Assembly (NCBI GenBank): GCA_010093815.1
Contig: ML996566.1
Strand: one strand, 5' to 3'
Source: Pseudovirgaria hyperparasitica
Lineage: Eukaryota
Length of the DNA: 64,000 nt
Within the stretch, counting starts at the first letter, position 1; every line of letters starts with the position of its first letter. Both the position numbers and the translations under genes were made by a program. Below the pieces are notes generated by a model that saw only the letters and a list, made by a program, of their open reading frames with translations, made no database searches and was not told where the DNA came from. Below, piece after piece: positions 37,701 to 60,718 of this stretch.

Positions 37701-39381
37701 CAAACATCGAGTTCCTGTGCATGTGGGATGACATGCTTCTCTGTGAGTTGCCGAAAGCCGACATAGGCGAAGCAATTGATCGCGTGGACTGATGCCCTGA
37801 CATCCCACTTCCGTTTGGTCCAATCCGCTGACTGCCTGCTGAAGAAGAAGGCAAGGGTGGAGAGAACGGTAAAGGAGGGTACTGAGACGAACCTTGCCTC
37901 GACATCATTGTTGGTGACTGAGATTGTGAAACTTCTTCTGAACCTCCCAACGACACGCCTAATGCGGCCAGCTTCTGCTCAACAAGGAAGTCCTGGTATG
38001 CCTTCCAGTCGTTCTCATTAGGTATATGTACCTTGAAGGATTTAGTACTCATCTGCTGAGATTGATCGGTTGGATCAGGGAAAACATCGCGGTTTTGAGC
38101 ATGGCCAAGCGGCTGAAGGATGTCCGGGGTACCTCTCCAGTGCCCGAAACCTCGCGTATCGTAACCTTCATCCTCGAACTTGGCGAGTCTTGCCCTCACT
38201 TCAGCGTGCGACAGAGGCATAGGTGCATGTCCGGGCTTGCCTCTGTTTGAATCAATCGGGAAGTCCATAACCACACTTCGACCTTTCTTCGTTTTGATCA
38301 CTTTCCTTGGACGCTTGGGTGGTGGTGTCGGTGCCCGTTCCTCGACTTCCTGTACACGCTTGACCGGAGATGGTGAAATCGGAAGAGCTGTCTCAGTGGG
38401 TATCGGCGTAGAAGGCTTCTTTGATACCAGTCGAGTAGCGGCATCAGAGGCTTCGATTGGCGACAATGATTGGTCTGCCGGAGAAGCTGTATTCGCAGCA
38501 TTTTCAACCGGCGAAGTCAAAGACTGTCGAGCCACAAGTTCCTTGGTTTCCTGAGAGCTCTCAGGCTCCGGCTCCTGTGGCTTCGACGCATACCTTGAGG
38601 CCATCATCTTGGCGAGATGTTCCTTCTCTTCCAGACCAAAGTGAGACCAGAAATCTTCTTGCTTTAGAGTCAAGTTCTTCTTGTGTCCCTTCCTCGCCTC
38701 TGTAGGTTCAAGCGATGATTGTCCAGTGGTTTCCGATTCAACGGGCTCTTTCGACTGAGCGTCGACGAATTTGCGAAGTAGCTCCTGTCTTGAGGCTTCT
38801 GGACTTTGCGACAGCAAATCCCTGAAGGCTTGCCTCAGGACTGGTCGCGGTGTGGCTTCTTGTGCGGCAAGCAAAGACGCAAAATGTTCCGCAGTCGGCG
38901 TTGCTTGTAGAGCCGGGACAAGAGCTGGCAGGAGATAATCAAGCCCAAAATCGGGGGTCTCTTCGTCTGCTACTCGAGAAGGAAGTAGATGGTCAAGACC
39001 AAATTCGATCTCTGACGATTCGCTACCTAGATCGTCACTTCCAAAATGCTCTGGATCTTGAATTCTTTCACTGACTGTGCCTGGTGAAGGCTGTCTATAT
39101 GGAGACCCCCAACTTGTTGTGTAGTACGACCCAGGCTCTTTAGGTACCGACGGCGCAGAAGGAGTCCGTGGGATACCAGCGATTGATGGTAGCGATGGAA
39201 GAGGTGGGAGCTCGGGACTTGAGTGACCTAGGGTGTTTGCGGGAGACGACCACTGATCCCGCGAAGGTGAGAGATCGTTCGAATGATCGAAGGGTTGCAG
39301 GTCTTCAACAGTCTGTCCGGGAGCAGACGGAGGAGAAGACGGCAGGGTATCTTGAGGTGTCGATGGTCGTGAAGCTTGCAT
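31723..39381 (-). CDS. Very large (2552 aa) protein: disordered N-half plus long C-terminal coiled coil, no myosin motor
   Basis: 7.6-kb uninterrupted ORF; E/K/R/Q-rich heptad region in the C-terminal third; structured-looking blocks FEDEGYDTRGF and LKERDTEIGWLRELLGVRVDDISELI. Confidence 0.9.
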   Translation of the reverse strand: MQASRPSTPQDTLPSSPPSAPGQTVEDLQPFDHSNDLSPSRDQWSSPANTLGHSSPELPPLPSLPSIAGIPRTPSAPSVPKEPGSYYTTSWGSPYRQPSPGTVSERIQDPEHFGSDDLGSESSEIEFGLDHLLPSRVADEETPDFGLDYLLPALVPALQATPTAEHFASLLAAQEATPRPVLRQAFRDLLSQSPEASRQELLRKFVDAQSKEPVESETTGQSSLEPTEARKGHKKNLTLKQEDFWSHFGLEEKEHLAKMMASRYASKPQEPEPESSQETKELVARQSLTSPVENAANTASPADQSLSPIEASDAATRLVSKKPSTPIPTETALPISPSPVKRVQEVEERAPTPPPKRPRKVIKTKKGRSVVMDFPIDSNRGKPGHAPMPLSHAEVRARLAKFEDEGYDTRGFGHWRGTPDILQPLGHAQNRDVFPDPTDQSQQMSTKSFKVHIPNENDWKAYQDFLVEQKLAALGVSLGGSEEVSQSQSPTMMSRQGSSQYPPLPFSPPLPSSSAGSQRIGPNGSGMSGHQSTRSIASPMSAFGNSQRSMSSHMHRNSMFAMPSSFAPQATPPGGFRTFSPHESYFGSQATTRGGSPGISQNNSMPSLNDTMSPVSPFGFTPQTYSFPQKDDLLAQLHQQRMQSPGLTNLRPSSTLQEVPEEEAEEEHDVPHQVKGAETEMAVPKPRHQHNISENLQRDVESADYHLEATFEKDVASGGQFSPGSRFGAESPKISHQSELDDSISEWRRPRPVEQVLHQPQPHNRNHSLTQTKQNSYNTAAANGRSDISDDAKTNISEITNPSAEEKAVGARMHSATTSQGSNIWKPGHGSRASKASIGSSLNASAKEFKFNPTASFQPGNFSFNSLGFEYQPSGGHKKNSFSRSVPYGSAAPFSFNPAASSWNVAAPSFTPGASLNSNPAPSGDFNFASSGPAFKPDSTSFRPNVDAAIMPEEPAEAEEKEVQSHIFGPINFSHKDIIKPAKRSKAVPIIRPDAVPRRASGARSGSDDDEIEEEDQEDADGRVTQSDARQKRARRFGDDGDTLPKFAPQPVLASQPLSETTQFQASKQEPQVERSPIPDAKENLAPTKPVVKEALPAPRAHAPADIVGINRSSDATPVGSSFLDDSRSMTEHDGSISASVEKLPERPPSNHAANKSSLSAIAKEFTPRIGSGSGAFEFGLHVTKPSDVTDIEHNSSAPNRQVSRSPTTTFRPSDDGSYRTALSRRPMPHADNDSVDFDSFAQPSFNDIDEVMKHMNDAGSDFGVEKEEAQTWERSSQPQGSMDFGTPNLRPNFTNLRSDAPSPSPRRMQAPTGMRHGESELIQDPFSDSRAGLAYESPVHRLNTAEDAPVSDWDDMVSDEAGIDKLQSRARFFDHHVDGLIDSVLSTRLGPLEETMRLMQESVAAMSRRSARSTRRSYSTEPLGSDADDEDDDLDEQRFRNRSPLKDRKLEKIRSIVVEALASQQQQNDPRSATPTPSAPPLDLSEIYSALADVKVSLAEQRADQPKIVSTPPDLTAINEAIAELKTSLAEQQKQHQAEVLAAQPPAPDFSEVHQAFAELKSSLAEQQRQQQEEQARIAAEVAARPVEPPAPAQVDLSDFYSALSDFKLSMAEKQSLEDTKPKSPQLPSVNTKELYDTINDLKASLSEQLQIRTAMPEVTEDKHDFSLSEVYQALAAMKVQLAHSASNHVSLEDFKDIMEEALRRQHTDVDQKNETFKALMHETLERHHESTGQHKEDLREIMNQAIARQEYVATQNKDEIREFIEEAFERQDTKEQKKSDNASILENEGRIADLEAMIKEASIKVDQEREARETAEKREEEAQRLLKLNDEEINIIRESLRDEESKTRALHEELHNTRSERSSRQVAEEELRRKFATLQDQNEALEATIDEYRLSSNKWRDEMTHSKSRNDELRAENEDLKIENDELKKTSDSVKLQLQEVVRVREGMRVKIEKLQYDMTQAAGSIAEEKSTWQKKDEEHRTRYEVLRARIEAEARTRERLERELERLETQEREGMRLRVKLEHTEQQLSKIEESSEKLRNERDEHERNAARYEREFREARHMGQTEVQRTRRLMEADLQAANNEINMLRSNADREKQRLQADFDNLKMDYDQTKARYEVQLEEALDARRNALNEAYNQREAAIDEVKERHERIYQEIRNQHARALENVREDSRREETHLKERLNLSNAKLEHLEDQAELLKSKAEHLESQLKVARDAANAAALTAASVKSPAAQQAPGGYAGVPEKVSPQALRESIVVLQEQLQERETRIESFERQLEEIDTEAPAKLKERDTEIGWLRELLGVRVDDISELINALGQPNVNREAVRDAAIRIRTNLQMEQQEKERLISGNGNSFPTLSTLSNLATPKAAQLAAAFGNWRKGGRDSRAGSTASIPQLKQPQLSNALNRSLTPSRPKPSPVPSHSQSILSGLMTPPASNVRRASPQPHPQTMPQQSRHQHPQHYPEQPSAFGSTGQRFTGLTSKQMGKQPAQSPSTPPLLRESSYDQDPMLRDEEISMNGFYDDEDSVIDGGAPEQELGGHEEEERGWEF

Positions 39382-40985: not shown

Positions 40986-42822
40986 ATGGCCAGGGACGTC
41001 GTTAACATTCAGCATAAACCGCGCGACCGCGGGGATGATGTTAGCAGTGCGAAGAGCTGGCCGGATAACACGTTCCTAGACTCTGCTTCCGAGAAAGACG
41101 AGACGGAGACGAGCACGATCACGCAGCAGTTGGAGGAGCCTGTTGTGATGCAAGCGGATCATACTTCTGCTACTGTTGCTGCTGCGCCCGTGGTAGTCGT
41201 TGACGATAAGCCTCCTAATGGCGGCTATGGATGGGCGTGTGTGGCGGCGTGTTTCTGGATCAATGCGCATACCTGGGGCATGAATAGTGTGCGTATATCT
41301 CTAATCATTGCTCGTTTTCTTCTTCTTCGTTTGGGTTGTCATTGGTGACAGTGATTGACGCCGGCGATGGCTATGTCGTACGGAACCACCGTGGGCGCAT
41401 TGATGGTGCTTCAGAAACAACGTACCACTACCGTCCACGTTCTCGTGCTCCCTCCCCCCGTTCTATACAAGATCTCATATCTAACGCCCAGCGCTCCAGG
41501 CCTACGCCGTCTTCCTCGCGCACTATCTCTCCACAAACACCTTCCCGGGCGCCACCCGCCTCGAATACGCCCTCATCGGCGGCCTCTCTATCAGTACCGC
41601 CCTCCTCATCTCGCCCATCGCCACGACCACCACTCGCCTCTTTGGCACGCGCACCACGCTCTTCATCGGCATCTTCTTCGAAACAGCCTCCTTCATCGGC
41701 GCCTCCTTCGTCACGCGCATCTGGCAGCTCTTCCTCAGCCAGGGCGTGTGTTTTGGCTGGGGCATGGGCTTCCAGTTCGTCGGCAGCGTGAGCGTGCCGC
41801 CGCAATGGTTCACCACGCGGCGCAGTCTCGCAAACGGCGTTGCCGCCGCGGGTAGTGGGCTAGGCGGGCTGACGTATAGTCTCGCAGCAAATGCGATGCT
41901 GCAGAGCATTGGTCTCGCGTGGGCGTTTCGGGTGCTTGGGATCGTGGCGTTTGTGGTCAACACGACATGTGCGCTTGTGATCCGCGATCGCAACAAGCAG
42001 GTTGGGAGTACGCAGTTGGCGTTTGATTATGCGCTGTTTCGGAAGTATGAGTACTGCGTGCTGCAGGTTTTTGGCGTGTTCAGTATGCTGGGATATGTGG
42101 TGTTGTTGTTTTCGCTGCCGAATTATGCGCAGCAGTCGTTGCACTTGACGTCGATGCAGGGCAGTATTGTGGGTGCGGTATTTCAGCTCGGGCAGGGACT
42201 GGGTAGGCCGCCTGTGGGTTACTTTTCTGATAACTTTGGGAGGATTAATATGGCGGGTACGATGTCCTTCCTGTGTGGGCTCTTTTGCCTGGTAGTATGG
42301 GTGTTCGCGAAGAGTTATGGAGTACTCCTGTTCTTTGCCCTCATTGGTGGAAGCGTCGCTGGAACTTATTGGGCGGTAAGTTGTCTGACACGATCCAGAC
42401 ATCATATTACCATTTGACTCATTGTGACAGGTAATCGCACCGGTCACAGCTGAAGTCGTAGGACTCAAGCACGTACCCAGTGCTTTGAATATCACGTGGC
42501 TGGTCTTAGTCCTGCCTACGACCTGTGAGTTCCGTATTTGTGGCTCTGCCGCCCAGTGGAGTTTGTGTCTAATAATTGTATAGTCTCGGAAGCAATTGGC
42601 CTGCAGATAGTGACCATGAATGGGGGCAAATATCTCGGTGCGCAGCTCTTTGCCGGTTTTATGTATATGGGTGCTGCATTATGCATGGTGTTGCTAAGAG
42701 CGTGGAAGATTGGGGACATACAGATATCCAAGAAAGTCAAGGCTGCCAAGGATGGAGAGATCGAGCACGTAGATGGAAAGGGGAACTTTCTACAAAGAGT
42801 AGTCAGCATGCAGCGAGTGTGA
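40986..42822 (+). CDS. MFS transporter, monocarboxylate-permease-like (Mch family)
   Basis: PPNGGYGWACV..FWINAHTWGMNS, QWFTTRRSLANGVAAAGSGLGG, GRPPVGYFSDNFGRIN; about 12 TM segments. Introns 41289-41499, ~42376-42430, ~42525-42583. Confidence 0.9.
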
Positions 42823-45143: not shown

Positions 45144-48100
45144 CTACGCCTCCAATGCAGCTTTTAGAGCAGAATCGATATAGTTGCTGATCCTTTTCCG
45201 ATTCTTCATGTTTAAAGCTCCATTTCGCCATGCTGAGCGCAGCTGTTTGAAAGCAATACGGTCACCTTCATGGGGTTCTGCGTTGATAAATTCAACATAG
45301 TGACGAGCAACACGTTGGCGAATGACGCTCCTAGGACTCATTAAAGCTTCGCCGTAGTAGTTGATCAGGTTCGTAATGCCGCTGTCAGATCTTCTTCTGT
45401 GAAGGTCTTCAAAGGCAAGAAATCGGAATTCGTTGTACATATGTGTATTGAAGTTGCGAATCAAAAAATGGGACCAGAATTGATACAAAACTTCCATGTC
45501 GTAGGGGCAAGATCTGAAGGGAGCAAGTCGCCGTTGTTCGAGTGCTTTTATTCGATGTTGTGTATAATATTCGCCAGTTGATTCAGGGGGAAGAGAGTCC
45601 ACGGGCTTGTCTTTGTCTTTGACCCAATATACTGTCAAAGGGCTGGTGACTTCTACTTTCTCGATAGGTTTCGTTGGAGTGAGGGTGCGGTGGAGGTTCA
45701 GCGATGGCCTCCGATCATCTCTGCAGGCTCAATGAGCATTGGCACTCGCATTCGCACGTGATCAAATGATCTGGCTTACCCGTGCGCCGCATTGACTCCG
45801 TTGACTTGGATGCCGTTGGGTCGGTGATCGGACTTATGTATGTCTTCGGACACGTTTTGAAGATCAATTGAGCCGTTCGAGAACGTTCGAGAAGAAGCTG
45901 TGTGGAAAGAGCCAGTAGCAGGAAGAGGCTGGGTCGAGATTGGCACGTCACGCACAATGATCTTCAGCCCCTCAATTTGTTCATCGGAGAATGAATCTGC
46001 CTCTGGATTCATCGCGGGCGGTATTGATGCAGTGTTGACTTGATCGTTCTGGCTAATGGCGGTGGACGGCGAGAAAGGCTCAGCATGTTGTGCATTCTCA
46101 GCTGTAACACGAGAGTGCTGTCCATTTACCATCGGTGTGTTGGAGATATCCTGTAATGACTGATAGGTCACCTCATTCTGGTGCCATCCCGGGCTTGATG
46201 GGCCTGTCGGCGACATTGTTGGTGGGTAGCGCATGCCGCCTATGTTTTCAAGGCCCTGGGGATGAGGCACAGGTGGATTATGAAGCTCGTCAGGACCATC
46301 ATTCTGAGCGGTGGAATCTCTCTCAGATGTACTCAAGACCCATTGCTCCCAGCCTTCGCGGCGTCGCAGCCTGTCTTTACCATCGACCCCAAGGCGGTAC
46401 TCGATTATCCGAGACTGGTAGCACACCAGCTTGATCATTTCCAGATCTGTGGTGAGCTGCTTGATTCTGTTGAAATCGGCGATGAACGTAAGGTAAACAA
46501 AGCCCTTTGAATCCATGTGCTTTCTCATGAACATATCCTTGCAGAGGTTCTCAACAGAGAAATAGTATTCACTGTGGATATTAGCGTCGAGGGTGTTGCA
46601 TCGGTAGTCGTGTACTTACAGTTGCATTTGAATCATGCTGACAAGCTGATAATTGTCCATCATTGGACTGTATGGCATTGCACTCATTGATTGCATGTAC
46701 GGCTGGTCATACATGCCCGGAATGAATGTCTGGATAGGTGATAGTTGTTGACTCTGAGGATAGCCGTTGGCAGAACGTCCATAGTTACTGTCCATCACCA
46801 TCGACTGTGGTCGGCCCCCACCACGCATCGACCTTCCTTGGGGCGGAGGCCCAAAATAAGATGTTCCCTCAGAGAAGGACGGCGAGCGAGGGTACGTATA
46901 CTGGCCTGGCTGCATTCCAGAGGTATGTCCATTCGTGAAGCCATGGGCTCCATGATGGTTGAAAGAGTTGGTTGCACCCCGTCCACCACGCATACTGCCA
47001 CGTCCTCTACCTTCGCCACGCTCCCTCCCAGACACGGAGCCAAATTGTCCGTTGCGTCGCTCACCTGAGCCATGCTTAGCCGGAGGGAATGAGGTCTCTA
47101 CTGCTGTAGACTGCTTTCTGTACGCAGCTTCCGGACGATCTGATGTTGAGGCACCGGCGTTTCGTGATTCTTGAGTCGCTGCGATGTCATTCATCGAAGA
47201 GGAGAGATCGTCTCGTCCCTTTTCGGCAGACGTGGATTCGAACTTGCGGGAAGCCCTCTGGCGGTTAGGCATGGCTTGTTTTGACCCTTGACCACTTTGG
47301 GTAGGTCCAGGAGATGGGAAACCTACACCCTCTGCGGCACTGTTCCGATATCCATTCGGAGCATCGGCAAACTTGAACGTACGGTCACTGCGCTCATTTG
47401 AGCCACTCGAGGTCTTCCCATCCTTGTAATGAGGACCGGCACTGGTGGCGCGGCGTGACTTCTCCGGGGTGATGTCTCGCGCGCTGGCTCCATCGCTTCT
47501 TTCTCGCTTGGTAGCATCGCCGTTGTATGGGGTCGGGCCACCTGTAGACTCTTTTTCAGGACTACCAGAGGTGTTGTTGTAGGCACCACCTCGTGACGAC
47601 GCTGTAGCGCCACCACGACTTCCACCGCGAGCACCTCCTCTTCTGTTTCCAGGATTGGGCAATGGTGTATTGAACACAACTGTGGGTGTATATGGCATGG
47701 ACACCCACTCATTCTTACCGTGTGTACGAGATGCCGTGGTGGTACGGTCTTTCACATCCTTTTCAGGCTTGCTGACAGCCTTCTTTTTGTCCTCATCCTG
47801 TGCGGTTTCAACAGTCGGCCAAGACTGTTCGTCTCTGGTTGGTGGTAAAGGAGCTGCGACATTCGAAGGATCTTCTTTGTGAGGTACTTTACTAGTTCGC
47901 GTATCTCGGCGTCCTTGCCCTGCTTTGTCGTCCACTTGAGTACGCGCATCAATGTTAGCATTTTGTCCTTTTTCTCTCCGGCCAGCGGATCTTAAATAAG
48001 TGCCTTCCGGCCCAGTTGGATGCTTACTCTTTCTTCTAGTCTCTGGCTTAATCGCATCATTGGTCTTCTCTGTCGAAGCTTTCATCGACGGTATGCTTGG

Positions 48101-48769
48101 TACGGCTGGGACACTGACCGGGCCCTTTTTAGGAGCCTGGGGAAGAGCAGAGGGCTTGGCAAACTCAGATGCACGCTGCTTCCAAATGTTGACTGTTGGA
48201 GGAGGTGCTTCATGCAAAGGCTTCTGCTGAGTCTTTTCCTTTGACTGGCCCTTCTTAGACTTCTCTTCTTGACTTGCACCTTGATCAGCAGACTTCTCTA
48301 CCGCTGCAGAGCCCTGGGACTTGTTCTCCCATGTTGACTCAGATGAGGCGTTGGCTAATGACGAAACATCATCGTCTTTCCCAAGAGTGGATGATGATGC
48401 AGTGCCACCGAATTCCGGTGATGCAGGACCCGAAATTTGACTCCGTTGCTGGATATTGGGCTGGGTTTGAGGAGCGACGCCATTGGCTTGCGGCTCTTTA
48501 CCAGAAGACTTTTCCAGTTCTTTCTGAACTCTTTTCAGTGAAGCTGCAGCGGTATCATCTTCCACATTATTCACGACTGGTGGGTTTGTTGGCAGAGTGT
48601 TACTGGACGGTGTGGCATCCTTTGCGGGTGTTATTGACCCAGACGATGCTTTGGCCGTAGGTGCTGCTGATGCTGATGTCGAAGAGATGCCTTTCGCGGC
48701 TTGTGCATATGAAAAGGAGCTCATAGTTCCAGTCGTGTCGCTGGATGAACGGTGGGAGGTAGTGGCCAT
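45144..48769 (-). CDS. La-motif RNA-binding protein (LARP1/Sro9/Slf1-like) with C-terminal DM15-like region
   Basis: After splicing: QLEYYFSVENLCKDMFMRKHMDSKGFVYL.FIADFNRIKQL (La motif); RGG boxes; PPPTVNIW and WPT motifs; C-terminal LYQFWSHFLIRNFNTHMYNEFR..A.ED. Introns near 46619-46572 and 45779-45721. Confidence 0.9.
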
Positions 48770-51700
48770 GCCAATATGAGAGGCAATTAGCCGCAAGCGG
48801 TGAGGTCTACCAGGTCTTTCGATTGACCTTGGTAGTGATGAGTGATCTCAGACTAGAGCTTGAGCGAGAGACACCGAACAACACAGCCTGTGACTGTGTG
48901 TCCGGAGAGGTGAAGGTCGACCCTCTCCGCGCTAGCTGTCCGATCTTGTTTGACTCGGTCGCGCGCGTGGGTGCTTCGACTGGCAGACTCTGTGAGAGAT
49001 GAAATACCGAATATTTGGTAATGAGATGTGTAGACGAGAGAATGGGTGAAGTTGAAAGTGAAGTCAGGAACGCTTGTTGAGAAGGCAAGTCAGAGGGAGG
49101 GTGTCGCTGGAGCGGTCGCGAGCTGTTACGAATGAGTACCAGAATGATGAGGAAAACGATGGCGGAAAGGTGAGAGAGTGGTGTCGCAGATGAGCAACGA
49201 AATGGGAGGTTTGGTTTGAGGGGAAATCGATTCGGTGGCAATGTCGCACAACGTGGGTGGTGTCTGAACAGGCAGGCGAAAACAGCAGCGACGACGGATG
49301 GAAACAATTTTGCTTACCTTCTAATAGTACCGGTGTGCCTGAGGCGTCGCGGGATCCGCCAAGCAGCGAGGATTCGGTCGTAGGGTAAACGGTGCGCCAA
49401 GTTGAGGGCTTTACCGCAGCTCGAAAACAGAGAAGCGCGAGAGCGAAAAGGGAGCGAGACAGCAGACCGAGAGATATGAGGAGGTGAAGAGTAAGTGAGA
49501 AGAGATAGGTGGCAGGGTAGTAGTAGCAGAAGAGAAAATCAGAGAGAGTGGTTTTTGTTTGGAGTGTGGAGGAGTGGCACGATGGATACCCGCAAAGATA
49601 ATTTTCAACTGCTGAAGACCGAGGAGTGCCCGTTGTGCGTTATGTGTGCTCGTGAGGTTTTTCAATTTCGCCGTGCTCAGTTGTGCACCGGCTGTGCCAG
49701 ACTGTACCCGCCCGCTCTCCCCAACTTGGATGCCACATAGCCCGCGGGCCGGCAGCCTTGGTGTGTTAATACGACTACGGTAATAATTGTTAACCAGGTA
49801 CTAATAAGTGTTAAGGCTTCGACCTCATTCATTCTGCATCATTTATCCACTAATAATCACTAATTGTCACCTAAGAGGGCATTCAACGTTAGGATAGCCC
49901 ACTCAATAGGCTCATTTCGGCTTTCATTCCAACATCCTCGGCCGTGGCTCTCTCTCACACACACTCTCTCTCTCTCTCTTTCTTCTCTCCATTCGCGCAC
50001 CATTGAACTTTTGCTATAATCCTTCGTATCCCCTGGAATCAAAACTCTTACTGAAACACTTCAAGTATGTGCCTGTCTCTCACTTGTCATTTTTCTCCTT
50101 GGCTTCCATTCGGCATAATTCACGCGGAGAAATGAGTTACCTTAGCTGCCTGACAAGCCAAGGCGCTAAGTGTCCCAGTTCATGTCGTCATCTCCAGCAG
50201 CACGTGAGAAGTCGATACTCAGTACCAACTCCTATCTACCTTTTTTATTTATTTTATATGATTCTTCACTTGCTGTGTCTGCAATCAGCTGCATTCAGGC
50301 GTTTCCCGTTACGAGACATCGGGACACGTCCCCTCGTTCTCGGTGGTCAGGTGAATTGTGTTAATTGTGTCACTCACACGCGTTATCTGTCCTACACGTC
50401 GTATGGTGACGCTGCTGCAGATGTGGCGCTCATCATTGTCCTCTTTTCACCCCAGACGCCTGTCAGCTCGCTGGTCGCAGAGTCCTCCTGTTATGAAGTT
50501 GAATGCAGTGATCATAGCGTCGTCCTGCATCAAGCATATCACACATCTCAGGCAGTCCTAAGTTTCTCCGACTTGCATTCCACTCGGCCCACATCAGTCA
50601 TGATCTACTGTTGAACCCAAACCTTGCGTGGGAAATGAGACTGCGAGAACGACGACATTGTATGGTAGATTGTAAGAAAGGTTGCGAGCGTGGGATAAGT
50701 CACCTTTCAAAACAAAGAATATTGGTGCCGTTGAGGAAGAGCATAATGAAGAGTGATGATAGGGAGTAAGAGTAGTGACTTGGGGGTGTAGCGGAGATGG
50801 TATCAATATCTATGGTCGTATCAGACCGAAAGTATGGTATTGTCGAGGCGCCGTCGGTGGTCACAGTACGTCTGGCTCTTCATTCACATATCGATATGCT
50901 AGACCTAGGAGCGATTTTTAGTACATCTGGGTCTCTTTATGGGAACTGGCAGCCTTTCATCGTGGAGACTATCAATCATCTATGTGGTGCGAAACGATGA
51001 TATATCCAGTCCGATCAGACTTACACGAAAACCGACTCTCACGCACATTATGTCCTTCTAATCCTCCAGCTTCCGTCCATCAGCAAGTTTGAACGTAGCC
51101 TCGAACAGATGGAATTTCATAAAACTCTGTAGCCAAGACTCATAAAGAGAGCCTATCATCGATGTACGTCAGGTCTTGAGGGATCTATGAGACCAACATC
51201 CTGGCTCCACGTTGTATCTAGGACATCTCACGACACAAACGTCTTCCTTTGCCCTGCATGCGTTGTTCTGATTCACATGGCACAGTTTGTTTTCGTAATA
51301 GCGATTAGTTTGTGGTTTCGGTAACGAGCTTGAAAACTACATGGCGGTGTTCTAAATAATTTGTCATTCGGTGACTTGTGTCCACTGGTCTGTGAGGTGA
51401 TGTGCGTGAGAGAAACAAGCCACGGAATGGTAGTAGGAGACGGTATATGTCTAGGTAGTGGTTCATGTACAGCTACGAAAGCATTGGCTGTTGTCTTCCT
51501 ATCCCTCACTCTATGTAAGGTGTTGGTATTGTTTAGCCACTGTCACTTTCTGCATTGTTGACACACGAGTGAAACTGCCGTGCCATGATATTGAGACAAG
51601 TGCCATGATGGCATTTTCTTCTGCTGATAAGATACACAATACTCTGCCCTTAGCTTTATAGTCGCCTATGTACTTTCACGCCTGATTACCAACATGCGTT

Positions 51701-51793: not shown

Positions 51794-53983
51794 TCAAACC
51801 ACTTTGATATCCCCGAAAAATCTGCCTACCGCCTTCTCTCCCCTCCTGTCTCTCCCTCTGTCCCTTGCACTTTCTTGATGTTGCCTCCTCGGCTCTTCAC
51901 CAACGCCACCCCTATCGCTCATCATCGAGGGACTATTCCGCCCCTGCTGCCTGAGATACTGAGCATAGAGCCTCGAATTCTCAGCCTTTGACACGTCCCT
52001 TCCGTGCGCTGACTCCATCCCGCTATCCTCAGCCGGGCGCCATTTCGCCTGCGGCTTATGCTCGATACCGCCATTAATCCGCCCTGTAAAGTCCTCTCGC
52101 TCCACCATGACGACCATCCACACGCCCACCTTGTTGTCCGAGCCCAGGAGCGGCGTGCAGTGAATCCAGCGCGTCTTGGACTCAACAATGTTGGGCCCGA
52201 ACTTTCCATGCAGCCATTGGATTTTGGCTGTTACGCCGACGCCACGGTCGAACGCTTTGGCGACTTCGGCGCGCACGTGCGCCGGACCGCCGACGCGTGA
52301 GAGGAAGTTTGATTGGAGGAGTCCAGGGACTCGGAGAGAAGCGGATGTGAATACTATACGTAGAGAAGGGGATGGGCGCACGAGGAGGTACTGGACAGTG
52401 TTAATAATGCGGTTGAGCGCACGGGGAGAGAGAGGTCTTACGTTTTTGTATACTCCTGGCAATCGACCAGAGGATCCGAAGCGTGCTGGTGGGTATAGAG
52501 CCTCATCAGAGTCGTCGTCGAGACCAACGTACTTGTGGTTGGGATGATGGTTCTTCCTCGCACCACTAGAATTCGGGCGCGTGCTGGGGGCTGAGCCACG
52601 GGCGTCCTGCTGCACTGCCCTTAGCTCTTCATCGCTCAACATGCGTCCGAGCATTCTAAGGTGTTTGAGTGATTCTTTCGGGGTAGCTTCTGACTGTTCT
52701 TTCTGGCCTAATCTGTCGTGCATCAATAGGCGTTGGAATGACTCGAGACCTCGCCCGCCGTCTACCAAATTTGTCACATCGACTTGGCAGCCGATGAAGT
52801 AGCGCGCTTGAAGGTTATTGTCGTGGAGAGGCGCAACAAGGAGAAGGTTGAGGAATGGTGTACCTTCGCGACGGCTGAAGATGTTAGCGCAAATACCTAC
52901 AGATGCCATGGAACTATGAACTGACTAATTCAGTAATGTCTCGCACAGCTCTTGTCCCTTGTCTATGGCTTCCTTGATCCTTCTTAGGGTCGCTTGGGAG
53001 CTTTTCGGGCCTTGTAGAAAGCGACAATTCTTGCCGATAGTGTATTTGCGTCCGTACTGGGTGGTGCGCGTGAACTCTGGTTGCGATAATCAGTAAAGTT
53101 CCCACGATAGATTTGCGTGACTCTAACCTTCTGAACAGTATACAATGGGGTTATCAGGCTGAGTTGGATCTGTCATGCAATATACTTCTGCAACTCCCTG
53201 TACAAGATCCTGCATAATCGGCGTGTTCGAACCTGTGATTTCCTTGACAAGACATTCTGTCACCACCTGTGTTAATTGATGGGTTATGTAGACCGGAAGA
53301 GCTTCCTCCACCAGTGTTTGCAAGAGCTGATCAGCAGTGTCTTCGAGGCTGGGGTTAATGCTGACTGCGCCCTTGTTCCCACCGCGAGGAGACAGATCCA
53401 TACTGATACGTTGCGCAATTATTGCGTTAGCGTAACGTGCAGCGGCGATTGCCTTTTGGGAGTCGAGGTATCGTATCAGGAGCGGCACCAGTTGTGGTTG
53501 ATAGCGATTGAGAAAAATGGTGAACTTGTGGAATAAAGCGTGGTCTTCAAGGATAGATTTGAGGTGGTCAACAGAGAACAAACGTTCGGCAAGCATTTCT
53601 GCATCTGACTCTGTTACCGTTGGAGGAGGTGGCCTCAAATCAAAGGTCTCTGGTTCGTGATAACGCGACTTGTCATGATCATAGGCCTCAGATTGCGGTA
53701 GTCCTGGGGGAGGTTCCTCATACAAAGGCTGATCCATGTCTTGACTTGGATCTGTCTCATTTGAGTCCTCCTCGTAGCCATCAAAGATCGATACAGCCCG
53801 TACGCTCTGACTAGACCTTGGAGACATTTGGCCGGGCGCTTGCAAATCATCGAAAGCATCGTCTCGTAGTAACTGGTCATCGAACTCTGTGTTTTCTATC
53901 GCTGGTGACATGATTGGACTGCTAATTCGATGCAATAATGGAGGAGTGGAAGACCTTGGCCTCGGGCTTTGTTGATAGGTCAT
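51794..53983 (-). CDS. LOV-domain blue-light photoreceptor, RGS-LOV-DUF-like architecture
   Basis: Spliced LOV domain: VYCMTDPTQPDNPIVYCSEEFTRTTQYGRKYTIGKNCRFLQG...LLNYRREGTPFLNLLLVAPL..YFIGCQVDVT. N-terminal helical RGS-like region (FTIFLNRYQP..L..YLD); C-terminal PAS-like DUF (YLLVRP..LRIVFTS...RWIHCTPLLG..VGVWMVV). Three introns. Confidence 0.88.
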
Positions 53984-55644
53984 GTCTTTGGATAGCCTAT
54001 CATTCCACAGTAAAAGCTACTGCTGGTTGTATGTACAGGACCGAATTCTTCGAGAACAACACGTGTTTTCAGAGGGAGGCACACTATCTTAAAGGACGAC
54101 CAAGACCATAAAAAGTAGGGTGACGGCAATCAAGCGACTACGTCACAGGAGACTATTTAGCCTGTCAAAGTCTAAGTCGGCTTTGACATCTGTCGGCAAA
54201 ACGGTCGGATGGCTCACAGAGAAATCTGATAGAATGTACCAGGTCATGCATGCCAACCGATCTGCCGCTTGTGAGGATGGCCCTAGTCATGCAAGATAGA
54301 AGGACTCCGGACCGGACTGGAGGAAAAGTGATAGCCCCGTCGAATGGGAATTATTGGCGCAGCTCAACTATATGCATTAAGTCTCTCTTGTCCGGTGGTG
54401 GCGTGTGAGTCTGCATGCCACACGTGTGAGGACGTCGGCCTTGACCATAAAATCTACCAACATGGTGGGCTGACATCAGACCCCAGATGATATCATCGCG
54501 AGTGTCAGTATACTCAGACAAGACCCGCCCATGTTATCTTTTCTTAGTAACGATATGGATAGAATGATGCGATAATAGACCCTGGAGCCGACGACAAGGT
54601 TTCCATGTCATACAAATCCGGGTCGCGCTGGAGTCCGCTCCGTGTGTGCCATCGTCCAAGTCCAGTTAACCAAGGATGAACGTAACAGTACCACACCGGC
54701 CCGATACCGAAGGACGAAAGAGATTAGACTGGTGCGTGTGGTGAGGCTGGACCGGGCGTCATGCTGTGGGTTATTGTGTTACCAACATTGAGAACCTCAT
54801 TTGATGAGGGACGTTCGATGGTTTGGGCGTCAGATTCTTGGATGGGTCCACACGTACCTGTCAAACGCTGAATGTCAAGCGATCATATGCAGGGAGTAGC
54901 CATTATCGACATCTAGATCCGAGGGTCGTCAGGCACTGTCAACGCCAGCTAGGTTAGTAGACAGGCATTGCTTGTGTTTGCTCAGGCACACAAATTCTCG
55001 AGATGTTGGAAAGTCTGAAGATTGATTTCGTTATTGATGCAGATATAAGTGAGCACGGCGGAAGAGGTCCAGTGTATGAGGTTGAATGGTTCACTTCGGT
55101 GTTGTCAAAGCGGTGTCTTGTAGATTGGAGTGGTATTGAAGAAAGGATGTCGAGGTGGAAGAGCATTGAATTACGACGCTAAGCCTATCAAGTACTAGAT
55201 CTTGATCCATCTCATACCCGTGCTGATCCATCTTGATCTTATCCTCACCCTCATACTTCTCTCCTGGTCACAACCCAAACACCACATTTCTGTGATCGCG
55301 TTCATGCAGACATGTTTGTCATAGTCCATCGGTTTAGTTAAGCGTACAGGAAAATACCAACAGGAGGATGATCTGTTGACACGAACAGCACAATATCTAA
55401 TACACTATATGCAAACTCTCATATCAAATCTAAACAGCTTCGATCCCCGATCACGACGAAAGGAATCAAAGATCTCGGGAGACAACACTTTCTATCAGGC
55501 CATATCCCCCTTGTCTGGACTGACACCATGTACCGCGATACGCCATATTAATGCTAACCCGGGAACGCCTTTGCCCAGCAGCTCTAACCTATACTAGCGT
55601 CCATCATTCGATCATTCGACCGCAGATCCTTGATCAAAAAGTCT

Positions 55645-57826
55645 TCACTTGCTAAACATATCCACCTCGTACCAGCTATCGCCATTAGGACACTGAACAC
55701 TGTTCTCCTTCAATCCCAACACCTTCTCGATTGTTGCTTCGCCGCATCTTTTCGAAATCGTCAAGGCAAATTGCCAATAGGACCAGTTATCGGCTGCGCT
55801 GCCGTCCTTGAATTTGTAGGGGTTGCTCTGGTCTTCGTTTTCAAATTGCCACTTGTCTGTTCCGGATGCTTTCTCGCATTTGTCCAGCTCACTCTTTAGC
55901 TTCTTGCCCCACTGGTCGCCCTGCTCGTATGCCGAAAGCTTCAGGTTGAAATTATACTGCCAAGCACCGCCATCGGAGCGCCGACAAGCGAGGTGGAGAT
56001 ATCCCAAGTGCTGGTTATCGGCAGGGAAGCCATCATGCTTGGAACCGCCAGGACCTTCAGTGTTGATGTCACGGACGCCGATTTGGTAAAATTCGTAATT
56101 GGCTTCTGTTTGCAGCCTGCGCGAATGCATTAGTCGGTGTCATGCTCCTGAACAAACGAAAGAGAAAACTTACCACGCCGATTCCTTTGTCTTCCCGTGT
56201 TGAGTCAGGAGCTGCTCAGTGGCCTGGTAGCAATTGCTACCGTCTTGGGTCGCGTAAAGGTAGAGCTCCTTATCATTAGAGATCTTGACTGAATAGGCGC
56301 ACCCTTCGTCTCCTACTCGAGTAGCTCGGACGAACTGCGACGGAACATCCGCAATAGCACTGGCATCGCAGATGTTCTGACAAGTCTTGTCTCGGAGCCG
56401 ATAGTACATATCAGTAATGTCATGCTGTTTGCCGTCGCCTAAGATCCAGTACTTGGGAAAGTTGGCGCTCAGCTCCCCTTGAGTACCAATCGCAGGATTT
56501 GATGGCAAGGGTGGCTTGATGGTACATGTACCTGCAGACAAGTCGACAATGTCAGCTCCCTGACCGATGTTCAACTGCTTCGCCCGAGTCTGTGCCATGT
56601 GGAAGAATATCTTGCTGGCTATAATAGCATGGCCCTTCTTCAGCGGATGGAACACACGCGCCCAGTTGTCTGGAATCGGGAGCGAAATGAGCGATTGTGG
56701 CTTAGGATCAGAGTCCGACATATTGGCTTTGATTGTGTCCTGGCCTTCCTTGATCAAACCTTGGACTTGAGCTTCGAAAGAGCCCTCGGGGAACCCATCC
56801 TCGTTCTGGCGCTTCTTCTTACTGCTCTCTGTGGTCCCGTCCTGGTACACGTCAGCCAAGCTGAGAGGCACTGAGAGGATGAATGGAGACTTACCAGATA
56901 GAACATTAGTTGATCACGGTTTGGCTGCGGCTCCTGTACTCCAGGCATGCAATATCGGCCCTCAAACGTTCCAAAAGCACTATCCCACTCAACTACCACG
57001 AATTGAGACCCAGCACGCTTGACAGCCTGTCGTATCTGTTCGTTGACCAGGTCGACTAGCTCATTCATGGCCTTTCTGCGGTCTACCGTAAGATACTGCC
57101 AATTCAGCCAGTTCACGGGGAATGTGAACCAATGCCAGGACACTTTGTCGCAATCGTTTGAGGTCTCATCGAAAAAGCGACCATAAGAAGTGACATAGAC
57201 AGTGCCTTGCCCAACTTTACCTTTAAGCTTGCCATAAAGAGAGTCAAGGTTTTTCGGCAGAGTGTTCTGGATGAGGTCCTTTGAATTGGCAATTGTCTTT
57301 TCACATCCGATCTTAGGATTCCAGGTGTAGACACACTCGTTCAGCAAGTCTACGAGGCCGACATCGTTGCCACCGGACGACACAGTAATCATGTCATATC
57401 CGCTAGACAACTGCGCGACTTGTTTCTCAACATCTGGACTCTTGGCACCCGAGCAAGCCAAGAACTCGAATGTTTGCGTGCCGCTCATACGTGGCGACGA
57501 ATTGAGCAGATTAGCATAAGAGCTATCGTATCGTGAGCACGAGTAGTCGATTCTGTTTCCTGCGCCAATTCCTGCCTATAGACTTCATTAGTGCAAGGTC
57601 CAGCGACGAGGGCTTAAAACTACCGAATACTTACAGCATAGGAATCCCCAACTGCGGCCCATTTCTTGATCCAGGATTGCTCATTTGCATTCTGCTGGGT
57701 TTGTCGGCGCTGAAGACCGAATATGTTTCTTGGCAAAGAGATTCCCGCTGCGGCTGGGGCTGCAAGAGTCTCTGGGATTGCGAGCAATAGCAAGAAAGCT
57801 TGCAGGGTGGACGAAGACCACTGCAT
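55645..57826 (-). CDS. Secreted SGNH/GDSL hydrolase (SEST-like) with long Cys-containing C-terminal extension
   Basis: Signal peptide MQWSSSTLQAFLLLLAIPETLA; blocks GDSYA|AG, ACSGA, SGGNDVG, VFHP. Four exons join in frame (introns 57634-57576, ~56894-56843, ~56173-56117). Confidence 0.85.
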
Positions 57827-58405
57827 CGTAACAAGGAGAAGATAAGTGAATGAAGATTAGAGTAAAGAAACAATGGTTTTGGTGGTTGGATTGGTGCTTG
57901 AGAGTGGTGATCTTGTCGGCGTGCAAAGGAACTCCACCATTTATACATATTGTAAGTTGACTCTGGTAAACAAGGCAATCTCTATTTCGAGAGTCGATAA
58001 AGCCCAGATACGAGATCTCACCTCATAAACACAAGGCTGAAACTGATGGTACCTGAGAGCCATGATGAATAATCAAGCCACATCCCGGAACAAACGCTCT
58101 GATTGGCTACCGACCATCTATATCGGGGTCGTGGAGGCTGTGGACATGCTTGTATCACGCTTATGCATCCGCGCACTGGACAAGGCAACATTTTTCTAGA
58201 AGCCCTGCTAATTTAGTACCTGTCAGCTCAAAATGGAATTCAGCTACGGAAGAATTTGATAAATTCAAAGAGAATAAAGCTTCGTAGGTAGTCCCTTTCG
58301 TTCAACAAGTCACTCGCTCTTCTCTAGATTTCCAAGTCTTTCTCGTCTCTCTGCCTCAAGCTTTGTATTTCCTCCTTTCTATCTTTCCTTCATATCACCG
58401 CCACC
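57827..58405. promoter_or_regulatory. Shared divergent promoter region of the SGNH hydrolase and the deaminase-like secreted protein
   Basis: Divergent ATGs about 580 bp apart; minus-strand TATAAA near 57945; pyrimidine-rich tract upstream of 58406. Confidence 0.5.
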
Positions 58406-59167
58406 ATGCTCCATCGCCTCTTCTACATCCTCCCTCTTCTCTCGACCCTCACATCCGCCCAACGCTGGGGGGTCCGAGAAGACTCCCCTCCAGCCGAGAC
58501 CCACGAGAACGTACAAATCACCCATTACTCCTCGGCCGTCACAAAGATCATCACCACCAACCCAGCGCAGGACCTCGACTTCACAAACGCCCAGGCCCTC
58601 ACCGATGGTATGCTCTACCAAATCGCGCTCGAGGCCGCCGCCGAAAAAGACGACCTGGCCGAGGCCGCCGGCACCATCGACAGCGTCCCGCCCGCCCTGA
58701 CAGTCATGCAAGCCGGCTCCGAGATCTACATCTCCTCGTCCATCAAGTTCAATGCGCCCGGCTTCATCACCACCTTCCCCTCGTCGCCCGCCAGCCTCGT
58801 TCTCGCACAGTGCTGCGCACTAGGCCGCTCGTTTGGCCTCGACGATCGCTCGAGCTCGAACCATCGCAGCGAGGGCAACTGTGGCGAGCCCGGTGCCGTG
58901 CACATGTGGTTCAAGCAGCACAACACGAACGACTTTGCGAGGTTCCCGCAGAACGGGCGCATTGTGACCGTTGGGTGGTATAATGGCGAGTACTCGATCT
59001 GGAACCCGTGTGGAAATAATGATGATCCTACGACGGGAAATGCGAGGGCTGATTGGGGATGTACGCGGTTTATACAGGAGTTTGGTCTGACGGCGCTGCC
59101 TGCGGGGACGCAGGCGCAGCAGGTGCCGGACGATTGGTATATTCAGACTAATCAGATCTGCCTATAG
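58406..59167 (+). CDS. Small secreted protein with putative Zn-dependent deaminase-like motif
   Basis: 253-aa intronless ORF with strong GC3 bias; signal peptide MLHRLFYILPLLSTLTSA; motifs HRSEGNCGE, RIVTVG, PCG..(x16)..C. Confidence 0.8.
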   Translation: MLHRLFYILPLLSTLTSAQRWGVREDSPPAETHENVQITHYSSAVTKIITTNPAQDLDFTNAQALTDGMLYQIALEAAAEKDDLAEAAGTIDSVPPALTVMQAGSEIYISSSIKFNAPGFITTFPSSPASLVLAQCCALGRSFGLDDRSSSNHRSEGNCGEPGAVHMWFKQHNTNDFARFPQNGRIVTVGWYNGEYSIWNPCGNNDDPTTGNARADWGCTRFIQEFGLTALPAGTQAQQVPDDWYIQTNQICL

Positions 59168-59437
59168 ACGATGGTGTGGGTGTTGGATAGTGTTTTGAAG
59201 TGTTGGGTGTTGTGTGTGTAATATTTCATAACGTTGAGTCTTGGGTATGACGGGAGGGCAGGGGGAGTTCTTGCTTTACATAGAAGGGGTTAGTAATATT
59301 CTTACTCTCGAGATTATCTACTGTTACTGTCTCGGCACTCTGTTTGCTAAGTGCTACTGTATGTGATATGCCACATAGAAGTGCTGCAATAGCAGTCAAC
59401 ACAGCACTCAGTCCCCATCTGACCCCTGACCAACCCC

Positions 59438-60718
59438 CTACCACACCAAGACCCCCTTGATAACCTCCCCCTTCTCCATCGCCTCCCTCGCCGCCGCAAA
59501 CTCCCCAACCGGATAATTCCGCAACAGTTTCTCCACCGGCAGGAACCCCTCCTTACACCACCGCACCAGCTCCGGCAACGCCTCCACCGGATCTCGATCC
59601 CCCTCAATCACACCCACAAGCCGCCGCCCATGTACCATATGCGCCAGCGTATCCAACTCCAGCCTCGCCCCAACGGGCTTGACACCCACCTGCAGCACCG
59701 TCCCATTATTCGCCACGGCCTCCAGACACGCGCCCAGCACCACCACACTCGGACTCGTATCCAGCACATGCGTCGCACCCCGCCCACCCGGCGTAAGCGC
59801 CCGAATCGCACCCTGCAAATCCGTCCCGCGCGCCTCCAGTTCCGCAGGCGCCGAATGTAGGCCATGTGTTGCGCCTAGCGTACGTGCCAGCTCGACGCGC
59901 GCCGGCACCAGATCTGCCGCGATGATGGTCTGGACACCTAGATGTTTGGCGGCGCAGATGGCGGCTAGACCGACGCCGCCCAGGCCGACGACGGCGAGCA
60001 CATCGGACGGGGTGCAGCGGGCAACGTGTGTGATTGCGCCGGCGCCGGTCATGATGCCGCAGCCCAGGGGCGCGTAGGCGATGAGGTCGTGGGCGTTGCG
60101 GACGAGGGCGGAGACGTTTGCGGCGCAGGTGGCTTTGACGGGGGTGGGCGAGGCGAAGGAGGATTGGCCGAAGTAGCCGCCGCCGATGACGCGGGAGGGG
60201 TCGGCGGCGAGGACGAAGTTTGGGTCGTTGGCGTGGAGGGTTACGGCGGCGTGGGAGGTGCAGTAGGCTGGGTGGCCGGTGGTGCAGTAGTGGCAAGACT
60301 GGCAGGAGGCGGCGGAGAGGATGACGAGGTCGCCTGGCTTGAAGTTCTTTTCGAGAGACTTGGAGCCGAGGCGGAGGATACGGCCGGCGCCTGGGTGAGG
60401 GTGTTAGAGATGTTTGAGATGGTGTTGAGGGGGCAAGGGGAGGAGGGGAAGTCGGGTTGGATATCTTCACTTCGGAAGGACAGGATTTCGTTGTAACGGG
60501 GATGTTGAAGGGGGAACGAGCACTGACTGACCTTCATGGCCCAGTACGCGCGGATATATGCCTCCATAACCTGAGATGTCGGTATGGCAGACGCCGGTGG
60601 CGATCATTTCGACCATGAATTCATCTTCATGGGGCTCACGAGTGAGGAGGTCTTCGAACTTCCAGTCATGCTCGGAGTAGGCAACAATGCCCTTGCACGG
60701 GACGGTATATTGGGACAT
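59438..60718 (-). CDS. Zn-dependent MDR alcohol dehydrogenase (aryl/benzyl-alcohol DH-like)
   Basis: GVCHTD, LGHEG (across intron 60531-60391), structural Zn SCQSCHYCTTGHPAYC, FGQSSFA, PLGCGIMTGAG, Rossmann GLGGVG. Confidence 0.92.

Follow-up and report, generated by a model that had tools for sequence, protein, structure and literature searches.

The killer system zymocin of Kluyveromyces lactis joins a GH18 chitinase, which acts as the carrier, to a tRNA endonuclease, and is encoded on a linear cytoplasmic plasmid together with an immunity gene. Blasticidin S deaminase (BSD) and cytidine deaminase (CDA) are cytosolic small-molecule enzymes that form small homotetramers, and the SNADs of animals belong to the helix-4 AID/APOBEC division of deaminases, in which the motif is HxE. 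The secreted deaminases known to act on nucleic acids comprise toxins of bacteria and the SNADs of animals (PMC3239186 and PMC5889660); YwqJ is reported to be a cytidine deaminase toxin of single-stranded DNA. Here, these systems are compared to a divergent gene pair of Pseudovirgaria hyperparasitica, a dothideomycete (Acrospermales) described as a mycoparasite of rust sori (PMC3317363, as excerpted here). The pair lies at positions 55645..59167 of a 64,000-nucleotide stretch (the window) of contig ML996566.1, GenBank assembly GCA_010093815.1, and is formed by an esterase gene on the minus strand, the stop codon of which lies at 55645, and a deaminase-like gene on the plus strand, the stop codon of which ends at 59167, so that both coding sequences are covered exactly.

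The preferred reading, held at a probability of about one half, is that the two genes encode secreted proteins acting independently of one another, which may be co-regulated: an SGNH esterase tagged with a lectin-like and an ACT-like domain, and a YwqJ-like zinc deaminase that probably serves antagonism. Both genes would be fired divergently from one short promoter region, and their products would act separately. The esterase or lipase would be held on a glycan-bearing surface by its tail, and the deaminase would be an antagonistic effector that deaminates cytosine in the nucleic acid of a target, entering target cells unaided as the single-chain fungal ribotoxins do.

The deaminase-like gene and its family

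The deaminase-like gene (58406..59167, plus strand) is a single exon encoding a protein of 253 amino acids (aa), referred to as P0001, in which a signal-peptide-like N-terminus is followed by a domain with a predicted cytidine deaminase fold. Unspliced transcript contigs cover the gene at 58227-59218 and 58254-59334 in the runs X1 and X2, respectively; both runs come from one sample of one study, and their contigs, for which the library type is not on record, are used here for splice sites and coverage and not for expression levels. The protein matches no Pfam family, a word-based search found nothing but P0001 itself among 858 candidates, and neither P0001 nor a profile of its family (A1) matches any sequence in the PDB. 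A full HMMER pass over 1.84 billion representatives gave 99 proteins at E<=1e-3, a count that falls to 20 when E<=1e-10 is required and to 3 at E<=1e-30, P0001 being counted in each case. The alignment of the family holds 54 of these 99, namely the best 58 minus P0043, P0050, P0057, P0060 and P0062, which are fragments or oddly matched; those ranked below P0065 were omitted.

Across the 54 aligned sequences Cys159, Glu161 and Cys202 are invariant, and His153, Pro201, Cys136 and four further positions are conserved in at least 90%; among the ten closest sequences His40, His153, Cys219, Trp217-Gly218 and Trp244 are invariant as well. The family signature is H-x3-G-x-C-G-E ... P-C-x16-C, its consensus GxCGE appearing in P0001 as G157-N-C159-G-E161. 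Its first half is encoded at 58862..58888 (plus strand; His153 to Glu161), with the conserved His, the putative zinc ligand Cys159 and the putative catalytic Glu161, and its second half at 59006..59062 (plus strand; Pro201-Cys202 to Trp217-Gly218-Cys219), a PC...C zinc motif whose two cysteines are separated by 16 residues. As judged by sequence, this signature is the zinc and proton-shuttle motif known from hydrolytic deaminases, except that its second part is split. By regular expression the full motif is present in 67 of the 99 proteins; the remainder are fragments or variants, for example with 'AC' in place of 'PC'. P0001 itself has three non-zinc cysteines, including Cys137 (codon 58814-58816).

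Identity to P0001 within the family is 23-38%. Of the 99 representatives, 28 were looked up by name, and the ten with named members are all ascomycete, from Fusarium (two species), Aspergillus (five species), Metarhizium, Myriangium and Apodospora; Fusarium decemcellulare and Metarhizium majus each have two distinct members. Fast divergence together with lineage-specific paralogues gives the family what look like the signs of a conflict gene. No fused Pfam domain occurs in the 14 longest members. With a further alignment (A4), a scan of 185,579 prokaryote genomes gave 46 pattern matches with none confirmed and so no close relative, and a metagenome scan gave 111 pattern matches, again with none confirmed. 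The family is undescribed in the literature searched, including PMC3239186, PMC3482391 and PMC5889660 in the portions drawn on here, although the supplementary tables of these papers may list members.

Predicted fold and comparison with known deaminases

The AlphaFold model of P0001, built on the 54-row alignment, has a mean predicted local distance difference test score (pLDDT) of 84.7 and a predicted template modelling score (pTM) of 0.85. The model was compared to known structures by VIA-align, an exhaustive structure search in which, by the tool's own grading, Z of 8 or lower is common. The first 16 rows are all deaminases, as are 22 of the first 24, at Z from 8.0 down to 4.6, in keeping with the three-layer alpha/beta fold of the superfamily. 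The top match is blasticidin S deaminase (3oj6_A; Z 8.0, root-mean-square deviation (rmsd) 3.0, 105 residues aligned), followed by cytidine deaminase (3b8f_A; Z 7.0, rmsd 3.2, 107 aligned) and then by ADAT2/3, guanine deaminase and TadA; a cytidine deaminase toxin of type VI secretion (9c63_A) is matched at Z 4.8.

In the model, the CGE motif opens helix 160-171 and C219 opens helix 219-225, which are the places of the superfamily motifs [CH]xE (helix 2) and PC...C (helix 3), and the last two strands have no helix between them, a topology which corresponds to the 'C-terminal hairpin' division of the deaminases (PMC3239186, as excerpted here). The OTT_1508-type fungal deaminases were considered as a possible identity and ruled out, as these have a helix between the last two strands that is absent from the model. 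The 16-residue insert between the zinc cysteines is modelled at low confidence (block means 58 and 61). On the model, P0001 is a candidate zinc-dependent deaminase in which Cys159, Cys202 and Cys219 would hold the zinc and Glu161 would be the proton shuttle; the conserved motifs and the predicted fold bear out the deaminase-like identity that the first-pass annotation of this locus had proposed.

The published definition of the YwqJ clade (PMC3239186, in the part drawn on here) names a Gx[CH]xE motif in helix 2, a His-bearing insert, and a further insert placed after strand 3 and ahead of the CxxC motif. The motif is present in P0001 as G157-N-C159-G-E161, and so is the His-bearing insert, which is modelled as strands 97-103 and 106-111 and helices 120-123 and 128-142 ahead of helix 160-171. 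As for the third hallmark, an extra strand (195-199) follows strand 184-192 and precedes P201-C202; the larger insert of P0001 sits between the two cysteines, in the low-confidence region of the model. P0001 therefore appears to carry the sequence features of this toxin clade in part, with the third hallmark arguable in the model. Comparison with the clusters of the Atlas provides a lead in the same direction, as the Atlas's own model of P0001 aligns with a YwqJ-related actinobacterial cluster at template modelling (TM) scores of 0.55/0.68 (features 0.77), better than with dCMP_cyt_deam_1 clusters (TM 0.36-0.43 by query).

P0001 and the YwqJ clade thus share a predicted C-terminal-hairpin fold, and both are exported, in the case of P0001 by prediction. 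They differ in that P0001 stands alone behind a eukaryotic signal peptide, unlike the C-terminal toxin domains of LXG/type VII secretion system (T7SS), RHS or similar proteins, and in that its zinc cysteines are 16 residues apart and do not form a CxxC motif. The eukaryotic members of the clade are also solely from Basidiomycota in the portion of PMC3239186 drawn on here, whereas the P0001 family is ascomycete. Of the traits of bacterial polymorphic toxins, neither a multi-domain delivery protein nor, in the list of open reading frames (ORFs), a candidate immunity ORF between the flanking genes was found.

With blasticidin S deaminase and cytidine deaminase (3oj6 and 3b8f) P0001 shares the Cys-type CxE motif and the PC...C zinc site, but identity is 12-14%, and P0001 is set apart by some 60 additional residues at the N-terminus, which include extra strands, by the helical insert 120-142, by the split Cys motif and by predicted secretion. 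The P0001 family differs from SNADs in having the C-terminal-hairpin topology and CxE. In common with the SNADs of animals it consists of eukaryotic deaminases with signal peptides, rapid divergence and proposed roles in conflict (PMC5889660, in the portion drawn on here, where no fungal SNADs are described).

The esterase gene and its SGNH domain

The esterase gene is composed of four exons on the minus strand. Exon 1 (57635..57826) encodes residues 1-64, in which a signal-peptide-like N-terminus is followed by the beginning of SGNH block I (GDS, Ser62); exon 2 (56895..57575) encodes residues 65-291 with the SGNH core, in which block II is CSGA 105-108 and block III is GGND 132-135; exon 3 (56174..56841) encodes residues 292-514, comprising the end of the SGNH part (His356 in FHP), a linker with Cys397 and the lectin-like domain B (NFPKYW...CQNICD, ~56487 to 56174); and exon 4 (55645..56116) encodes residues 514-670 and the stop codon, forming the ACT/ferredoxin-like domain C. 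The introns are of 59 nucleotides (nt) (intron 1, 57576..57634, GTAAGT...TAG), 53 nt (intron 2, 56842..56894, GTAAGT...CAG) and 57 nt (intron 3, 56117..56173, with donor TG|GTAAGT, which reads TGG TAA in frame). Transcript contigs reach from before 55400 to 57997 (X1) or 57905 (X2), and one contig from each run skips exactly these three introns, intron 1 included (CT..AC on the plus strand). By script check, the four-exon reading has 2013 nt and 670 codons with no internal stops.

The public model of the protein (P0005) is 514 aa long, ending at the in-frame TAA of the intron 3 donor, and so misses the last 156 residues. A relative, P0006, also stops at this Trp, probably through a like truncation, and the homologue P0007 and others continue unbroken from that Trp into the exon-4 domain. 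Since the spliced contigs and the P0007-type homologues all run on into exon 4, the public annotation is short by one whole domain.

P0005 scores 47.0 bits (E 5.5e-12) with the Pfam model PF13472, for which the curated cut-off is 32.9; this bears out the SGNH hydrolase of the first-pass annotation; its description as multi-domain also holds, as two extra C-terminal domains, lectin-like and ACT-like, stand behind the SGNH part. On the 670-aa product a script check placed the SGNH blocks at GDSYAAG from 60, CSGA at 105, GGND at 132 and FHP at 355, with Ser62 (I), Gly107 (II), Asn134 (III) and His356 (V) as the block residues. The nearest PDB sequences are 5mal_A ('Lipase', E 3.5e-21), with which blocks I-III align, and 4hyq_A ('phospholipase A1', E 1.9e-20). 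Asp is absent three residues before His356, and a Ser-His dyad is therefore likely; such dyads occur in related esterases. A dibasic Arg40-Arg41 (57706-57711) lies about 17 residues past the likely signal-peptide cleavage and could be a propeptide site of the Kex2 type. The protein has 15 cysteines, the odd one being Cys397 (codon 56525-56527) in the linker before domain B, where P0006 and a further homologue, P0117, also have a Cys.

The lectin-like and ACT-like tail

Domains B and C, residues ~410 to 670, make up the tail module of the esterase, which has no Pfam match (exons 3-4). With the B+C part of P0007 as query, a word-based search brought up 372 candidates, of which 14 proteins reach E<=0.01, with pairwise identity to P0117 of 45-83%; named carriers are Pseudogymnoascus verrucosus, Lophiotrema nucula (P0117) and Geoglossum simile. 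SGNH sequence precedes the tail in P0005, P0006 and P0117, the last of which starts in the linker at the SGNH end, and an HExxH motif precedes it in P0113 (named 'Lysine-specific metallo-endopeptidase' in UniRef) and P0120. The segment ahead of the module in P0113 is common to P0007 and P0110-P0112. As the sequence ahead of the module differs between proteins, being SGNH in some and HExxH in others, B+C is taken to be a portable C-terminal module.

For P0117, AlphaFold gave a model with pLDDT 83.3 on an alignment of 15 sequences. Foldseek found no match to this model in the PDB at E<=0.001, and P0007 has only chance-level matches to PDB sequences (E>=0.6). By VIA-align, domain B (residues 26-157 of the P0117 model, with matched stretches within 26-171) resembles the plant DUF26/Gnk2 fold, with 6grf_A at Z 7.9 (rmsd 2.9, 93 aligned), 6gre_B at Z 7.2 and Gnk2 itself (4xre_A) at Z 6.4, as well as the mushroom lectins LDL (4nds_A, Z 6.6) and Y3 (5v6i_A, Z 6.1); these DUF26, Gnk2, LDL and Y3 matches fill five of the ten top rows, all of them below the tool's caution line of Z 8. 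Domain C (residues 178-281) matches ACT-type domains at Z 5.9-7.0, this being a generic fold. The model of the LDL lectin family, PF21691, matches one of the eight tail-module proteins scanned at E<=10, with E 0.051.

The Atlas clusters nearest to the esterase combine PF18647 (Fungal_lectin_2) and PF28342 (ACT-like), a lead-level comparison (features 0.79, TM 0.33/0.15), and one of them, at the same level, is of 701 aa and holds 238 ascomycete proteins that also have Lipase_GDSL_2. An architecture of SGNH, lectin and ACT domains appears to be common. The esterase has the same domain order and a similar size (670 aa versus 701 aa), but its tail differs, as PF18647 matches none of the eight tail-module proteins at E<=10. 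As a lead only, the esterase may be a divergent branch or a look-alike of this architecture; it is not placed as a member. The tail would make the esterase a surface- or glycan-anchored enzyme with candidate glycan binding, on the strength of the model, and that HExxH peptidase-like proteins carry the same tail suggests that it may serve to anchor the enzyme where glycans are exposed, for instance on a cell wall.

The gene pair and its surroundings

By ORF and sequence reading, the start codons lie at 57826 (minus strand) and 58406 (plus strand), 580 bp apart with 579 bp in between, so that the head-to-head arrangement of two signal-peptide-like genes given by the first-pass annotation, with about 580 bp between the ATGs, is confirmed. 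The shared intergenic region (57827..58405) holds both 5' untranslated regions; the transcript contigs of the two genes reach inwards to 57997 and 58227, which leaves about 230 bp. The repeats that a scan of this region found are all short or imperfect, one of them being an overlapping palindrome of 11 nt with 82% complementarity, and no shared promoter motif was seen in it. Transcripts cover both genes, on separate contigs in X1 and X2; joint transcription in one sample does not show co-regulation. In the translations both N-termini pass from a few polar residues through a hydrophobic core to small residues (a crude hydrophobicity script gives 2.09 for P0001), and secretion of both products is predicted on this basis.

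The plus-side neighbour of the pair is a zinc-type alcohol dehydrogenase (59438-60718, minus strand), in agreement with the unrelated intracellular flanks reported at first pass; the neighbouring ORFs on the minus side (51794-54016), putatively intracellular, have no Pfam match. Further away lie a fragment of an MFS transporter (41485-42417, plus strand) and a La/LARP1-type RNA-binding protein (45144-48847, minus strand). No secondary-metabolite cluster or other cluster of secreted proteins is evident around the pair, and tblastn found no paralogue of either gene elsewhere in the window. An open frame of 2552 codons (31723-39381, minus strand) has no Pfam match at E<=0.001.

Independent or joint action of the two proteins

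The first-pass annotation had identified both proteins correctly and had gone on to read them as a delivery system analogous to zymocin; this analogy was not borne out, and none of the zymocin features looked for was found. The likeness is one of concept only, a secreted surface hydrolase next to an enzyme of nucleic acids. The carrier trait of zymocin is missing, since no GH18 chitinase or chitin-binding domain was found and the Pfam matches of P0005 are to SGNH families only; the candidate warhead is a deaminase, where that of zymocin is a tRNA endonuclease; the pair is chromosomal, on a contig of 2,458,394 bp with ordinary nuclear genes around it, in place of a linear killer plasmid; no immunity gene is seen beside it; and nothing supports a covalent bond joining the two proteins.

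Several observations count against the preferred reading. Foldseek found no match of the P0001 model in the PDB at E<=0.001, all of its VIA-align Z values are 8 or lower and hence in the range that the tool grades as common, and the best single structural matches are small-molecule enzymes, namely blasticidin S deaminase and cytidine deaminase. No Pfam deaminase model, PF14431 included, matches P0001; PF00383 matches one of the 54 family members (E 0.0011) and PF14431 none of them at E<=1. Mature P0001 is acidic, with an isoelectric point (pI) of 4.5 and a net charge of -14, in a family with a median pI of 5.98 over 53 members, 13 of which lie above 8; enzymes acting on nucleic acid are not usually so acidic. 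With regard to independence, the nearest esterase relative, P0006 (52% identity), and the deaminase-family member P0020 (29% identity to P0001) each have a single JGI/IMG contig on record, and in both cases its length is 50,893 bp. As equal sizes are unlikely by chance, the two are probably on the same contig; no other equal contig sizes occur among the records that could be compared, and the coincidence suggests that linkage of the two families is kept in a second fungus. The shared 579-bp intergenic region and transcription in the same sample likewise count against independence. In favour of independence, none of the five named deaminase genera (Aspergillus, Fusarium, Metarhizium, Myriangium and Apodospora) appears among the 14 tail-module proteins, but this comparison is a weak one because it rests on names for only 28 of the 99 deaminase representatives and the tail search was word-based and less sensitive. 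A metagenome scan with the tail-module alignment (A3) gave 317 pattern matches, none of them confirmed.

The acidic pI would suit a small-molecule substrate no less than nucleic acid. On a rival reading, possible if on the unlikely side, P0001 is a secreted deaminase of small molecules, which would act on cytidine or other nucleosides or bases for salvage or inactivate aminonucleoside antibiotics in the manner of blasticidin S deaminase, with the esterase as an unrelated neighbour. The two best structural matches, at Z 8.0 and 7.0, fall to enzymes of this kind, the deaminase has no delivery domain, and the Cys-type CxE is commonest in the CDD/CDA and BSD division (PMC3239186, as excerpted here). 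Against it, the family diverges fast and has lineage-specific paralogues, unlike salvage enzymes, and the His-bearing insert and, arguably, the split Cys motif are as in the YwqJ clade and not as in the compact CDA/BSD core; CDA and BSD are small homotetramers, whereas P0001 is extended at the N-terminus by about 60 residues and has a helical insert; the Atlas scores for the YwqJ-related cluster and for dCMP_cyt_deam_1 point the same way. It is very unlikely that catalysis has been lost altogether and that P0001 is a binding or structural secreted protein, with its cysteines serving as structural zinc or disulfide sites. The lack of any Pfam deaminase match would suit such a protein, as would the displacement of the second zinc cysteine by the low-confidence 16-residue insert, but Glu161, Cys159 and Cys202 are invariant in 54 of 54 sequences, and a purely structural site is disfavoured because it would not need an invariant Glu161.

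It is also doubtful that the two proteins form a two-component weapon, in which the lectin-tagged esterase would bind and damage the envelope of the target and so let in the deaminase to attack nucleic acid, the divergent promoter seeing to it that both are made at once. The layout is suited to it, with head-to-head genes 579 bp apart and transcripts of both in one sample, as are the lectin-like tail, which suits surface binding, the toxin-clade features of a deaminase that lacks a delivery domain of its own, the listing of P0006 and P0020 each on a contig of 50,893 bp and the mycoparasitic habit of the host fungus (PMC3317363, in the portion drawn on here). However, fused forms are absent (the 14 longest of the 99, the ones scanned, have no Pfam domain), the named deaminase genera are missing among the tail-module proteins, and the tail is found on HExxH peptidase-like proteins too and so looks like a general targeting module; the Atlas cluster of 238 members, a lead, also suggests a common stand-alone enzyme. 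An odd count of non-zinc cysteines in each mature protein is a passing point in favour, but the extra Cys137 of P0001 is not found in its nine closest relatives. An intermolecular disulfide between Cys397 and Cys137 was accordingly rejected as a candidate, the non-zinc cysteines of P0020 also being even in number. Equally doubtful is the wider view that the pair is a conserved fungal weapon module, a eukaryotic and chromosomal two-protein counterpart of the bacterial deaminase toxins and of killers of the zymocin type, in which the lectin-guided esterase would dock on and breach the surface of a competitor or host fungus and the fast-evolving YwqJ-like deaminase would then mutate or inactivate its nucleic acids; were it true, the 50,893-bp contig would be the first sign of a pairing kept across orders of Dothideomycetes. 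The preferred reading remains that of two secreted proteins that act separately.

Implications

For practical purposes, the public esterase model lacks a whole C-terminal domain of 156 residues, and the lectin-plus-ACT tail is a portable module common to esterases and peptidase-like proteins. The new part of the locus is the deaminase family, the esterase being a divergent example of an apparently common architecture. As a secreted family of filamentous ascomycetes with a member in a mycoparasite, this large family would be a fresh pool of compact deaminases for base editing, and deaminases would join the fungal toolkit of antagonism, next to ribotoxins, RNase effectors and KP4/KP6-like proteins.

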